Source: a virus (Duplodnaviria; Heunggongvirae; Uroviricota; Caudoviricetes). From it: DNA of 3,146 nt. Positions 1-3,000 of the stretch are shown here, piece by piece. The stretch lies in the IMG/VR virus record IMGVR_UViG_2671180417_000020; one strand, 5' to 3'. A program made the position numbers. Position 1 is the stretch's first letter. Each line of letters opens with the position of its first letter.

Positions 1-3000
1 CCGATTGACGAAAAGCTTATGGCGCTTCACAAGTGGTTTTGGGAACAAAGTGAAGCCGAGCGCGCCGCTGGCATTCGCATCAAAGGAGAGTGAGATGAAC
101 GGACAAATCTCAATTGTTCGACCGGGAGCATGTGACGATTGCGAGATACGAATGATTATTCGTCTGGCGAGGGGGAAAACAATAACTGCTCTCATTACTC
201 CAGAAAATCTCGCATTAGCATTAACCGGAAAGTCAGACCTGCCAGTAGAGCTAAAGCTGCGAAATGTTGAGATTAAGGTGAGTATCAGCAATGAATAACA
301 ATCCTCGCATTGGCGGGGATTTCTTTTATCTGAAAAGGACAGAATACATGATTAACAATATTGCAAATCAGTCTTCGTTTCCGGCTGCAACAATTGACAG
401 CCAGATGCTGTTGAAAATGGTTAATGAGGCGCGGAGACTGCGAGGCGAAAAAGAAGTACGCAACAACGACTTCATTGCACGCATCAAAGATGAGCTTGAG
501 GGGGAGGGTTACGAAATTTTCGTAACCCCCATGGATAAGAAAAAAGGCGGAGCGGATCAGGTGGTTATAGTGATGACCTACAAGCAAGCCCTGCGCGTCG
601 CCGCACGTGAGTCGAAAGCCGTCCGTCGTTCGCTGGTCGACAAACTTGAATCAATGCAACAGCAGTTGCAACAAAAAACGACCACGAAGAAATCACCGGA
701 TGGCCTTGAAGAATTCCGTAAGGCACGCGCATTGAAAATGACCGTCGACACAATGAAAGACCTCTTCGACTTCCTCCCTCACCTCGCACCGGAAGCTAAA
801 CAGGTCGTTGCCGCCAGCCTGATTAATCCCGTCGTCGGCTTTAGTGCAATCCCTCTTCCGGTCATTGATGAACATCACTACTCTGCGTCGGAGGTTGGCA
901 CCATGCTTGGCATTTCAGCCAACAAGGTAGGGCGCATTGCCAACACCTACATGCTCAAAACAGAAAAGTACGGGAAGTGGTTCATCGACAAATCGGCGCA
1001 CAGTGACAAGCAGGTCGAGACATTTCGCTACAACGAGGCGGGAGTGCACAAGATCGAGGAACTCATCGAAGGAGAACGAAAGGCTGCATGATTTTGACAA
1101 GATAGTTTTCCCCAAATCTGGGGGGAAAAGACCGAATGGCGCGGCTTACAGCAAGATAAAGACCACATGATTTGACAAATCCGCATTAACGGGGCTATAT
1201 TCCGCTTCATGGTGCTGAACACACCTTGCAAAGCGGAAACCGCACCCGTCAGTCATGCGGCTTTTTTATGTCCATTTCTCAGATATGGTCGGGTAGCGCG
1301 TATACCGAAAAACAACCGAAAGGTTAAGGATACGGGCCGACTTTGCACGGTGTTCAAGTACCTGACCGCCCTGCTGAACACAGGGCTATCTGAACAAATG
1401 CAAAGGACATAAAAATGACCAGTCAACTCATCCCCGTATTCAACGGCACTATCGCCAACGAAACAGCCCTACTCTGCAATGCCCGCGATCTGCATGCTTT
1501 TTTAGGCGTGAAAAAGGTGTTTGCGGCATGGATTACAAATCGCATTTCAGAATACGAATTCATTGAAAATCAAGACTATATTTTGCTTTCCAATTTGGGA
1601 AAGCAAACATCTGGTAGAGGCGGTCACAACCGCAAGGATTACCACCTCACCCTCGACACAGCCAAAGAACTGGCGATGGTGGAGCACAACGAAAAAGGCC
1701 GCCAGATACGCCGATACTTCATCGAGTGCGAAAAGAAACTTCGCCAGAGCCTTTTACCTGCACCAATGAACATCAACTACCCCCTCTCGTGGTTCTCAGA
1801 TAACCATCCCTACGCCACGATGAACTATGTTGATCGCAAGGTTATCAGCCTTGATGCTTCCGTGCTCTTCGATATGCCAAGCCCAACTATGCGCATCCTC
1901 AACGAGCTACACAGCAAGGGCTATAACGTCGACGCAGCTGTCGCTGAATTTAACGCCTTCAAACATCTGACGGAAGAAATGCGCCGCACGCTACAGGATA
2001 TTTCAAGACTGTCAGATCGAAATTCCCGAAAAGGCTTCTCGTTAAGTCTTTAAAGAACAGATCGTTTGACAATGCCTCCAAAGCTATCGCATACTGACCG
2101 CACTACAACGTCAGCGGTCAACCGCACCCGATAGCTTTGCGGCTTTTTTATGCCTGTTTACAGGTATCGCCATATCAATGGCGGGTCGAGAGAGCCTAAT
2201 ACAATACCCTTTCGGGAAATACGCTCCGCCGTCTGACGCGGTAGTTGAAGCCCGCCACCCCACTAAGGTGGCAGTCAATACTAAAACGTCAGGAGTCATA
2301 ATTATGGCTAATCAACTCATCCCCGTATTCAACGGCACTATCGCCAACGAAACCACTCTTCTCGTTAATGCTCGCGATTTACATACTTTTCTTGGGGTAG
2401 GTAAACGCTTTGCATCGTGGATTACAGAACGCATTGCTGAATATGGTTTCGTTGAAAATCAGGACTATATTTTGGTTTCCCTAAATCGGGAAACCAAAGG
2501 TCGAGGAGGCGATCGCCGTAGCAAAGACTATCACCTCACCCTCGATACAGCCAAAGAAACTGCGATGGTTGAACGTAACGAAAAAGGCCGCCAGATCCGC
2601 CGATACTTCATCGAGTGCGAAAAGAAACTTCGCAACATTCAGCCAGTACAAACTGAGCAGCAATTCACAGCCGAGGAAATCATCCTCCTTTGCTATATGC
2701 AGGTACAGATGGAGAATGCGCAGGACATCTGCAAACGTCTGTACCCGATATTGAAGGAACTTAACTCATCATACGCGAGTAAACTGTATGACATTGCGTT
2801 TGAAACCTTCTATGCGGTGACGAAAAACAGAGACGCATTGCTCAGGGAGGCAACACGAATTGACCAGACAAGCGCCATTTTCGAACGGGCAAGACCAATG
2901 TTAAAAAGCCTTCGGGCGAGACAATTCGAATTTTAATATCAAAGGAGCTTCGGCTCCTTTTTTTACAGGTGAAACTTAATGAAATTCAAAGTCACAGGTG

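Follow-up and report, generated by a model that had tools for sequence, protein, structure and literature searches.

An element of about 40 nucleotides occurs twice in the window analyzed here, a stretch of 3,146 nucleotides from a virus of the Caudoviricetes (IMG/VR record IMGVR_UViG_2671180417_000020), and the question is what it does upstream of two antirepressor genes. The first-pass annotation had read it as a minimal attenuator, in which a CCGC segment, CCGC(2), pairs either with a downstream GCGG(3) next to a U-tract or with an upstream GCGG(1). We consider the best explanation, at a probability of roughly 0.7, to be that the element belongs to the leader of a self-contained antirepressor-control module in which termination would be gated by RNA. 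The transcription start sites, termination at the U-tract, and read-through are quantities that we infer throughout. The annotation overlooked the promoter, the adjacent sRNA-Xcc1 RNAs, and the logic of the a1b1/a2b2 sites, which together make RNA, rather than protein, the likely trans-acting partner.

The repeated element and its module

Copy 1 (1233-1270) reads GCGG-AAA-CCGCACCCG-TCAGTCAT-GCGGCTTTTTTATG and copy 2 (2114-2152) reads GCGG-TCAA-CCGCACCCG-ATAGCTTT-GCGGCTTTTTTATG; direct reading of the sequence agreed with the annotation for both, including the 11-mer AACCGCACCCG (1238-1248 and 2120-2130) and the 14-mer GCGGCTTTTTTATG (1257-1270 and 2139-2152) that the copies share. A repeat finder reported them as a 40-nt pair with 80% identity. 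The element is found again in hundreds of contigs from phages and bacteria, far above chance; at least 120 viral contigs match the pattern CCGCACCCG-N6-12-GCGGCTTTTT, with 74 distinct sequence contexts among the matches listed. For unbiased samples, loci were picked through the core of the downstream Xcc1 RNA while the element itself was ignored. Upstream of the core, an equivalent hairpin with a U-run was present in 95 of 121 distinct loci from viruses and 92 of 118 from bacterial genomes, and the element lies upstream of ant-like genes in other genomes as well. In 2.96 Mb, 298 motifs resembling this hairpin (hairpin 2 below) were found; CGG stands upstream in 288, nearly all of which precede an Xcc1 RNA. 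An Rfam cmscan of the window (E ≤ 10) gave no model matching the element itself, IsrK and C4 included, and a full-text literature search for its sequence returned no paper.

The element is a 3′ terminator-like hairpin that closes a short leader RNA, before a c4-like antisense RNA of the sRNA-Xcc1 class and an antirepressor gene. The module order is promoter, a1/b1 sites, weak hairpin with conserved loop and U-tract, sRNA-Xcc1-class RNA, a2/b2 sites over the ribosome-binding site, and antirepressor gene, and all the features described here are on the plus strand. The leader is promoter-proximal and 55-60 nt long as counted from its inferred 5′ end, and the element forms its last part. In module 1, a sigma70-like promoter (TTGACA-18-TATATT, 1172-1201, 11/12 matches) is followed by a putative start site at ~1208/1209; a promoter is found at the same position in ~80 of the 95 homologous modules. 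Folding then gives leader hairpin 1 (GGUG-CUGAACA-CACC, 1211-1225), whose loop is the a1 target site, whose stem covaries in homologues (GAGG/CCUC, GGAG/CUCC, GUGG/CCAC), and which pairs with the Xcc1 linker GUGUUCA. The b1 target site UUGCAAAGCGG (1226-1236), taken from the leader:Xcc1 duplex, ends in the upstream GCGG (1233-1236). Hairpin 2 and its U-tract (1240-1267) consist of CCGCA (1240-1244), the loop CCCGUCAGUCA (1245-1255), UGCGG (1256-1260), C, and U6 (1262-1267), as supported by sequence, fold (-4.7 kcal/mol), stem covariation, and loop conservation. The sRNA-Xcc1-class RNA carrying a′ and b′ (1287-1375; RF02221, 69.3 bits, E 8.6e-12) comes next, followed by the a2/b2 repeat CUGAACA...UGCAAAGG (1390-1407), which was recognized by comparison with leader positions 1215-1235 and overlaps the ant Shine-Dalgarno sequence, and by an AntA-family antirepressor gene (1415-2053; PF08346, E 1.1e-25).

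Module 2 is built in the same order. Its sigma70-like promoter (TTGACA-18-CATACT, 2066-2095, 10/12 matches) has a putative start site at ~2102; a1 (ACUAC) and b1 (CGUCAGCGG), again assigned from the leader:Xcc1 duplex, occupy 2102-2117, with the upstream GCGG at 2114-2117. Hairpin 2 and its U-tract (2122-2149; sequence, fold -4.8 kcal/mol) comprise CCGCA (2122-2126), the loop CCCGAUAGCUU (2127-2137), UGCGG (2138-2142), C, and U6 (2144-2149). The sRNA-Xcc1-class RNA (2180-2264; RF02221, 53.0 bits, equal to the gathering score, E 6.2e-8) precedes the a2/b2 repeat ACUAA..CGUCAGGAG (2280-2295), which overlaps the Shine-Dalgarno sequence (2102-2120 compared with 2280-2298, 84%), and an AntA/P22_AR_C antirepressor gene (2304-2936; PF08346, E 1.5e-27, and PF10548, E 5.6e-9).

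Both RNAs reach the RF02221 gathering threshold of 53 bits. The C4 model (RF01695) found no match in the window at E ≤ 10, and the resemblance of these RNAs to C4 is one of architecture and a′/b′ logic only. Across the family, the Xcc1 RNA lies ~20-90 nt downstream of the element (20-30 nt after each U-run in the window); it was found at the gathering score in 12 of 17 diverse loci and at 43-53 bits in the other five. Since MAFFT plus RNAalifold on 14 Xcc1 RNAs did not recover the structural register, the RNAs were located by Rfam matches and a core pattern. The downstream genes are always of the antirepressor type (AntA, Bro-N, ORF6N, or Rha), and the modules occur in Enterobacterales, Pasteurellaceae, Xanthomonadales, Neisseriaceae, Alphaproteobacteria, and Desulfovibrionaceae. 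A coding ORF over leader and Xcc1 (1209-1412; ATG at 2178) was rejected, being not conserved between subtypes. No good candidate for a second promoter between U-run and Xcc1 was seen in the enteric subtype; judged by eye, one is plausible in some long-spacer subtypes. As a separate observation, the sequence after the terminator (U-run plus AUGYC) pairs strongly with the ant ribosome-binding site in module 1 (13/14), which is not general (mean z 0.15 over 87 modules).

Hairpin 2 and the pairing of the leader with Xcc1 RNA

The annotation had placed a terminator-shaped hairpin beside the U-tract, and this hairpin is present, with covariation supporting its stem. It has the shape of an intrinsic terminator, with a stem of 4-7 bp, a gap of 0-2 nt, and U5-8, and a consensus terminator scan missed it because its loop exceeds 8 nt. 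The stem covaries across 25 stem types, and cognate arms pair over a mean of 5.2 bp compared with 1.0 bp for mixed arms; in an anchor-only test, 96% paired over at least 4 bp compared with 50%. On alignment A2, 77.8% of cells were paired and 56 were changed on both sides, against 63.5% and 20.8 in shuffles, and none of 500 shuffles reached the observed values. The plus-strand hairpin also keeps G-U pairs (UCGCA/UGCGG, CCAGC/GUUGG, UGUCAC/GUGGCA). Hairpin 2 is a genuine RNA helix. Its predicted stability ranges among subtypes from about -1.8 to -4.8 kcal/mol, weaker than the IsrK terminator (-7.1) and the last terminator of the window (-10.9), and it may therefore terminate poorly under any condition. 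Folded in isolation, the element does not exceed shuffled sequence in stability (z 0.17 and -0.01), so structure by itself does not mark it out.

The leader is complementary to the RNA that follows it. In 91 of 92 modules, CGG(1) pairs with the P3 arm of the Xcc1 RNA downstream, within duplexes of -23 to -46 kcal/mol. Those of the window have -32.1 kcal/mol (z -4.5, module 1) and -23.1 kcal/mol (z -4.7, module 2), and its two modules are orthogonal, with no cross-pairing (z -0.5 and -0.2 for the crosses). Each leader's complementarity is specific to its own Xcc1 RNA: the mean is -28.3 kcal/mol for cognate duplexes and -21.2 for non-cognate ones, and the cognate partner ranks first for 20 of 64 pairs.

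We then folded the leaders of 70 modules in silico. The probability of hairpin 2 was 0.19 in free leaders, 0.53 in shuffled leaders, and 0.73 after changing CGG to CAA; with the cognate Xcc1 footprint blocked it rose to 0.94, a value that is partly trivial because the leader is so short that blocking any large part favors the sole remaining hairpin. Footprint blocking thus restores the terminator in silico, which suggests RNA-dependent termination. The predicted switch is strong only in CCGC-type stems (0.01-0.04 compared with 0.5-0.65 in shuffles) and absent in the CCAAC subtype (0.53 compared with 0.46). The folding outcome also depends on the 5′ end of the transcript; were the start site 3-6 nt farther upstream, the CCGC of the discriminator would sequester GCGG(1), and hairpin 2 would be constitutive (P 0.95).

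By analogy with IsrK-C4 of Gifsy-1, P1 c4, and P4 seqA-CI-seqC, transcripts ending at the U-tract would give a short leader RNA, whereas those reading through would provide the Xcc1 precursor and the ant mRNA. The mature Xcc1 RNA would mask a2/b2 and block ant translation, and the leader would compete for it. In the window's subtype, the folding model predicts that GCGG(1) of the module's own transcript folds first onto CCGC(2), so that no terminator forms and RNA polymerase reads through. Xcc1 RNA bound to a1/b1, including GCGG(1), would let hairpin 2 form and stop transcription, a negative feedback of the kind described for P4 CI. Read-through past the U-tract is implied by the abundance of sRNA-Xcc1, which is among the most abundant non-translated RNAs of EHEC EDL933 with about 40,000 reads (PMC5331693) and is an 88-nt species in Xanthomonas (PMC2996969).

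RNA arriving from upstream, from the previous ant gene or pL, would carry the promoter region as an extra 5′ arm and is predicted to fold into a hairpin of ~-30 kcal/mol ending at the same U-tract, in which case the element would also insulate tandem modules. In module 1 (1173-1268; -35.1 kcal/mol, z -3.95), the long hairpin, which ends at U6, is formed by pairing of the promoter region with both GCGG(1) and hairpin 2. In module 2 (2074-2143; an 11/11 inverted repeat, -30.1 kcal/mol, z -5.09), the promoter spacer CAAAGCUAUCG pairs with CGAUAGCUUUG, and GACCGC pairs with GCGGUC. Both composites form only in RNA from upstream. The mean z of the long hairpin is -4.2 in the enteric subtype; complementarity between promoter and leader is confined to this subtype and a few others, and z is about 0 in most subtypes.

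Other readings of the element

These long hairpins, at -30 to -35 kcal/mol and z -4 to -5 with the promoter region included, would also suit a constitutive intrinsic terminator of the upstream gene whose overlap with the next promoter is accidental and which plays no regulatory part downstream. The genes at 348-1091 and 1415-2053 indeed have no other plus-strand terminator, unlike the last gene, which has a canonical one at 2939-2966. However, the long hairpin is limited to few subtypes, as stated, whereas hairpin 2, its loop, and its fixed place between the module's own promoter and Xcc1 are conserved everywhere, and we regard this reading as improbable. It is more improbable still, to the point of being hardly credible, that the conserved sequence works as double-stranded DNA, be it an operator, another protein-binding site, or a cruciform. 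The inverted repeat with the promoter spacer in the enteric subtype would agree with such a role; however, it is absent in most subtypes, the G-U combinations through which the stem pairs would be A-C mismatches on the other strand, and the U-run always follows, on the plus strand only.

As for the attenuator itself, the two pairings exist and are nearly iso-energetic, at -3.7 and -4.6 kcal/mol for the alternative hairpin of copies 1 and 2 and -4.7 and -4.8 kcal/mol for the terminator; both hairpins are weak. In the window's own predicted transcripts, the upstream pairing dominates the ensemble and hinders the terminator, as had been proposed (P 0.95-0.97 compared with 0.02-0.06). Nevertheless, this is not a feature of the family. 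A complement of at least 4 bp to GCGG(1) is found only where the stem is of the CCGC type (52 of 95 modules), and the alternative is absent in the other 43 (45%), for example with CCAAC, UCAC, or CCCACC stems. On alignment A2 the alternative helix was 70.7% paired, against 68.4% in shuffles, with only three double changes; it is neither conserved nor covarying with the terminator arm. What conserves the upstream GCGG is its pairing with Xcc1, as the 3′ end of b1, and not attenuation. The annotation further suggested that the CCCG loop is recognized by sequence. The loop is conserved as CCG-W-H-A-R, with A at +5 in 95 of 95 modules, which favors recognition by a protein or other factor, as does the outcome of pairing and mutual-information scans, which found no RNA partner for it. 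One downstream site alone recurs, ACCCGAU:GUCGGGU in the 5′ arm of Xcc1; about 20-25 of the 95 modules have it, all of them enteric, and scans of variable loop positions against leader and Xcc1 gave lineage effects only. The downstream proteins belong to different families, so no module encodes a common loop reader, and a host factor would be needed. A self-contained attenuator in which a protein or other factor reading this loop decides between GCGG(1):CCGC(2) and CCGC(2):GCGG(3) is therefore unlikely. The antirepressor-module model that we favor leaves the invariant loop unexplained. Another reading is an H-type pseudoknot, with CGG(1) and the loop CCG as a third helix beside hairpin 2 and W-H-A-R in the groove; such a compact fold could act as a stabilized terminator or could serve a host factor (Hfq, ProQ, NusA, or an RNase) as a binding platform. 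All 85 distinct modules have CGG at a distance of 0-7 nt before the stem and a loop with CCG at its 5′ edge, and the lengths of the loops would allow the fold sterically. With A-CGG, the loop reads CCG-U in 9 of 11 cases, compared with 31 of 72 for G-CGG, although these flanking-pair statistics are weak, and the commonest combination, G...A (41 cases), mismatches a fourth pair. The three pairs are invariant and show no covariation, and Xcc1 pairing already explains the conservation of CGG(1). We hold the pseudoknot to be doubtful, if slightly less so than the attenuator.

Relation to known RNA switches and implications

The element seems to be a relative of the IsrK-C4 and P4 seqA-CI switches known from prophage immunity, one that is very widespread and yet unannotated. 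IsrK, in isrK-orf45(STnc1160)-anrP of the Salmonella prophage Gifsy-1 (RF01394; PMC4825925), is likewise a promoter-proximal leader; it ends in a Rho-independent terminator, as the Xcc1-type leader is predicted to do. Both leaders are followed directly by a stable c4-like RNA and an antirepressor gene, both are complementary to the downstream RNA region, and partial read-through is expected. The IsrK terminator is partly read through, and the read-through mRNA is kept inactive by pairing with a downstream region (PMC4825925); IsrK and C4 have been equated with P4 seqA and CI (PMC3632133). The Xcc1-type leader differs in having b1 between two hairpins, a weaker terminator (-4.7 compared with -7.1 kcal/mol) with the conserved CCG-W-H-A-R loop, and sRNA-Xcc1, not C4, as partner. 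The isrK model gave no match at 1208-1270 or 2102-2152 (cmscan, E ≤ 10), and the link is accordingly architectural and not demonstrated homology. True isrK matches, at 71-83 bits, are seen in locus L016, where promoter-IsrK(terminator)-C4 is immediately followed by promoter-element-Xcc1-ORF6N gene.

As with c4 of P1/P7 and its a1 b1 and a2 b2 sites, the antisense RNA is flanked by two copies of the target sites, the downstream one overlapping the ant operon's ribosome-binding site, and tandem or related modules differ in specificity, resembling heteroimmunity. In the "c4-a1b1" motif (Weinberg et al. 2010, PMC2864571), too, the upstream target copy lies within a pair of covarying hairpins; the Xcc1-type leader has two hairpins that covary and carries a1 in the loop of the first. 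However, that motif, which was never given an Rfam accession, is described with no terminator U-tract and with b1 3′ of the second hairpin, where the Xcc1-type leader has b1 between the hairpins and Xcc1 instead of C4 as partner; the hairpin sequences also differ from the published alignment. In P4 seqA-CI RNA (seqB)-seqC, an antisense RNA cut by processing from the same transcript pairs with an upstream leader site and promotes termination, as may happen in the window's subtype. Mechanistic details of the CI-dependent premature termination were reportedly given by Sabbattini et al. in 1995. Termination was demonstrated experimentally in P4, whereas it is predicted in the window's modules, and the P4 system controls replication genes, not an antirepressor; P4 immunity by this termination is summarized elsewhere (PMC4825925, PMC3632133). 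Finally, the window resembles classical attenuators (1:2/3:4 versus 2:3) in carrying CCGC(0), GCGG(1), CCGC(2), GCGG(3), and U6, with the outcome set by availability. Unlike them, its modules have neither a leader peptide nor a ligand. Segment 0 falls within the promoter discriminator, and transcripts from the module's own promoter probably do not include it; the four-segment arrangement is not a conserved trait of the family.

Whether a prophage remains silent is decided by antirepressor genes, and this holds for Shiga-toxin phages too. Of 5426 complete E. coli genomes, 375 carry the promoter-plus-leader of the module 2 type and 126 that of the module 1 type, with nothing annotated at these sites. 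So far, sRNA-Xcc1 has been described as a trans-acting virulence sRNA. Its own leader and terminator and the duplicated target sites point, for this poorly understood Rfam family, to a concrete role in cis, control of ant, symE, and ORF6N genes within the module. This extends the IsrK-C4/seqA-CI paradigm to a third RNA class and offers hundreds of natural variants for the study of RNA-dependent termination and RNA-RNA specificity.

A joint reading is possible, and we put it forward tentatively: Xcc1 would be the repressor of a third and very widespread c4/CI-type RNA immunity class, the leader hairpin would be gated by RNA, and the loop would be a dock for a host factor or a pseudoknot partner. 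If this is true, a module's own transcripts would be read through by default until cognate Xcc1 on a1/b1 switches the terminator on, and transcripts from upstream would always be stopped. The CCG-W-H-A-R loop, as a dock for a universal host factor or as part of a pseudoknot, would make the weak hairpin competent for termination. Tandem orthogonal modules such as those of the window would then be naturally programmable RNA-controlled terminators.

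Tandem antirepressor modules and the repeated element

The window comes from the distal part of the pL operon found in lambdoid and Stx prophages, where the order runs from ea22 through ant-like genes to xis-int, and pL transcription runs along the window's + strand. Three genes stand there in tandem on this strand: gene 1 (348-1091) and two ant genes, for which the domain search identified an AntA antirepressor domain (1415-2053) and an AntA antirepressor domain plus P22_AR_C (2304-2936). Each ant gene is preceded by a + strand module, in which a strong sigma70-like promoter (TTGACA-18-TATATT, 1172-1201, in module 1; TTGACA-18-CATACT, 2066-2095, in module 2) lies 5' of a ~40-nt repeat, hereafter the element. 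An Rfam match to sRNA-Xcc1 (1287-1375, 69.3 bits; 2180-2264, 53.0 bits, equal to the gathering score) begins 20-30 nt or less past each element copy. The leader sequence CUGAACA..UGCAAAG of module 1 (1215-1232) is repeated at 1390-1405, over the Shine-Dalgarno sequence, and ACUACAACGUCAGCGG of module 2 (2102-2117) is repeated as ACUAAAACGUCAGGAG (2280-2295), both just 5' of the ant start. Just 5' of each -35 motif (1157-1178 and 2051-2072), TAAAGAcCAcATGATTTGACAA is common to both modules and many E. coli prophages; it is a candidate UP element, or else the conserved end of the unit before.

By direct reading, the element copies on the + strand are GCGG-AAA-CCGCACCCG-TCAGTCAT-GCGGCTTTTTTATG (1233-1270) and GCGG-TCAA-CCGCACCCG-ATAGCTTT-GCGGCTTTTTTATG (2114-2152), exactly as in the first-pass annotation, and the repeat finder returned them as a 40-nt pair with 80% identity. 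Recurrence in other genomes, which that annotation had proposed to look for, was found at many viral and bacterial loci for the element or its hairpin; an exact-pattern scan of viral contigs gave at least 120 viral loci, with 74 distinct contexts among the matches listed. The motif is no chance repeat.

A conserved hairpin upstream of sRNA-Xcc1

Loci were then sampled by the Xcc1 core alone, the element being ignored in the choice. A hairpin whose loop contains CCG and that precedes a run of at least five T was present in 95/121 distinct viral upstream regions and 92/118 bacterial loci, the hosts being Enterobacterales, Pasteurellaceae, Xanthomonadales, Neisseriaceae, Alphaproteobacteria, and Desulfovibrionaceae. 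The stem of this terminator-shaped structure, hairpin 2, takes 25 forms (e.g., CCGCA/UGCGG, CCAAC/GUUGG, UUCAC/GUGAA, UCAC/GUGA, and CCCACC/GGUGGG), several with G-U pairs. Cognate arms paired over a mean of 5.2 bp versus 1.0 bp for mixed arms. When instances were anchored on the loop motif and T-run only, at least 4 bp formed in 96% of cognate versus 50% of mixed pairs. With 64 distinct instances aligned by MAFFT, 77.8% of the cells were paired versus 63.5% in shuffled controls, and 56 were changed on both sides versus 20.8; these values were reached by 0/500 shuffles, and slid controls gave 48% at most. Hairpin 2 is a genuine RNA structure and is conserved. Its loop follows (C)CCG-W-H-A-R, with A at +5 in 95/95 and G at +6 in 83/95 (A at +6 in xanthomonads), which bears out the earlier suggestion that the loop is kept in sequence. 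Of the 298 motifs of this kind in the 2.96 Mb of DNA sampled, 288 had CGG upstream, and nearly all of these 288 preceded an Xcc1 RNA; the motif is specific to the Xcc1-module context.

Non-enteric subtypes (e.g., L123, the second module of L001, and L125) conserve (C/U)(U/A)AUG right before the Xcc1 5' end and carry an extra small hairpin between the U-run and Xcc1, such as AUGCC-UGCAAUU-GGCAU. Some long-spacer subtypes may have a second promoter in that interval.

Competing pairings in the leader

The first-pass annotation had proposed that the 5' arm CCGC(2) pairs either with GCGG(3), giving the terminator, or with the upstream GCGG(1). Both hairpins form in silico, yet both are weak: for copies 1 and 2, -3.7 and -4.6 kcal/mol for the alternative and -4.7 and -4.8 kcal/mol for hairpin 2. 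The outcome depended on the RNA 5' end. RNA from the predicted transcription start folded into the alternative hairpin (P 0.95-0.97; hairpin 2, 0.02-0.06), RNA including only the discriminator CCGC formed hairpin 2 (P 0.95), and RNA including the promoter region formed one long hairpin (-29 to -34 kcal/mol) that ends at the U-tract (z -3.95 in module 1, -5.09 in module 2). Besides the enteric subtype (mean z -4.2), a few other lineages showed significant promoter-leader complementarity, which was absent elsewhere; in locus L092 a compensatory change pairs loop GACAG with spacer CUGUCG. Ordinary hairpin-plus-U terminators lie at 300-321, before gene 1, and at 2939-2966 (strong, -10.9 kcal/mol), after the last ant gene; for genes 1 and 2, the + strand scan of the window found no terminator besides the composite hairpins. 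Because of this 5'-end-dependent folding, the element in the window probably also ends transcripts of the preceding ant gene, which has no other + strand terminator.

The earlier interpretation is partly right: in the window's subtype, a putative leaky terminator competes with a pairing upstream, but GCGG/CCGC does not stand as a conserved core. A complement of at least 4 bp between the upstream segment and the 5' arm was limited to CCGC-type stems (52/95 modules), and the alignment test gave 70.7% pairing versus 68.4% shuffled, with only three double changes. The alternative helix therefore characterises this subtype and is not a structural element conserved across the family; in the remaining subtypes, the loop CCG is a possible alternative partner for CGG(1). 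Across 70 folded modules, the mean probability of hairpin 2 was 0.19 in the free leader, 0.53 in shuffled leaders, 0.73 after in-silico change of CGG to CAA, and 0.94 with the cognate Xcc1 footprint blocked. CCGC(A) stems showed this effect strongly, CCAAC stems not at all.

The earlier annotation had missed the RNA partner. Predicted duplexes were -32.1 kcal/mol (z -4.5) for leader 1 with Xcc1-1 and -23.1 kcal/mol (z -4.7) for leader 2 with Xcc1-2, whereas the two cross pairings were at background (z -0.5 and -0.2). For 64 distinct leaders the mean was -28.3 kcal/mol cognate versus -21.2 kcal/mol non-cognate, and the cognate duplex ranked top of 64 for 20. In 92 modules picked via the Xcc1 core, the duplex (-23 to -46 kcal/mol) takes in hairpin 1 with a1, the linker with b1, and the conserved CGG; in 91/92 of these modules the partner of this CGG is the 5' arm of helix P3 in Xcc1.

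In module 1 only, the U-run plus AUGUCC (1263-1276) is 13/14 complementary to the ant Shine-Dalgarno/start region (1402-1415), and the minimum free energy fold shows this long-range helix enclosing Xcc1; such pairing is not general (mean z 0.15, 87 modules). Directly 3' of each Xcc1 RNA, and overlapping its ACCC tail, lies a hairpin (CCCUG-CUGAACA-CAGGG, 1369-1385; CCACC-CCACUAA-GGUGG, 2255-2271) whose loop shows a copy of the a site, so the target sequence is present three times per module.

Relation to C4 and IsrK immunity systems

The pairing of leader, Xcc1, and the repeat before ant follows the a1 b1 / a' b' / a2 b2 layout known from P1 c4 (Weinberg 2010, PMC2864571, supplementary file 1). 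Because CGG pairs with Xcc1 in this c4-like layout, the upstream GCGG represents the 3' end of b1. IsrK has been described as an sRNA with a partly leaky terminator; pairing between the IsrK part of the longer mRNA and the region downstream, where the stable processed RNA STnc1160 is located, keeps that mRNA untranslated (PMC4825925). Short IsrK activates the antirepressor AnrP in trans, and CI-like control of its terminator was raised by the authors (PMC4825925). P4 seqA and CI RNA have been equated with IsrK and C4, with related systems in P1, P7, and N15 (PMC3632133). The element would work like IsrK/seqA/a1b1 but differs from IsrK in sequence-model membership, as it matched no Rfam family at E <= 10. 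In viral contig L016, promoter-IsrK-C4 is directly followed by promoter-element-Xcc1-ORF6N gene; the IsrK copy there has a 3'-terminal hairpin plus U6 of its own, and the c4-a1b1 motif matches the first hairpins of this IsrK. This contig (2388-2850, 3530-3810) carries a mixed tandem of IsrK-C4, element-Xcc1, and IsrK-C4, with an ORF6N-type gene after each.

ORFs also cross the leader and Xcc1, recalling 'orf45' of the IsrK locus: 1209-1412 in module 1 (67 aa, stop 3 nt before the ant ATG at 1415) and 2178-2303 in module 2 (from ATG 2178, in frame with ant at 2304). They lack conservation between subtypes and probably do not encode proteins.

We read the element as, most likely, the end of b1 together with the terminator hairpin in an IsrK-like leader that serves an Xcc1-class immunity module. 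Our confidence in the module architecture is high; termination at the element gated by Xcc1 is a tentative proposal, to which we give somewhat less than even odds.

In the literature searched, sRNA-Xcc1 was not linked to c4-type control and the leader was not described. It is known as an 88-nt RNA in Xanthomonas (PMC2996969) and as untranslated and highly abundant in EHEC EDL933 (PMC5331693). It precedes an ORF6N gene in APSE phages. In viral contig L089, five CRISPR-DR4 repeats (Rfam RF01317; 5807-6074) lie ~1 kb past two tandem Xcc1 modules. Furthermore, the most widespread Xanthomonas integron cassette carries sRNA-Xcc1 5' of the toxin gene symE, and five tandem copies occur in a Xylella genomic island; both settings agree better with regulation of toxic genes within a cis module than with a virulence sRNA that stands alone.
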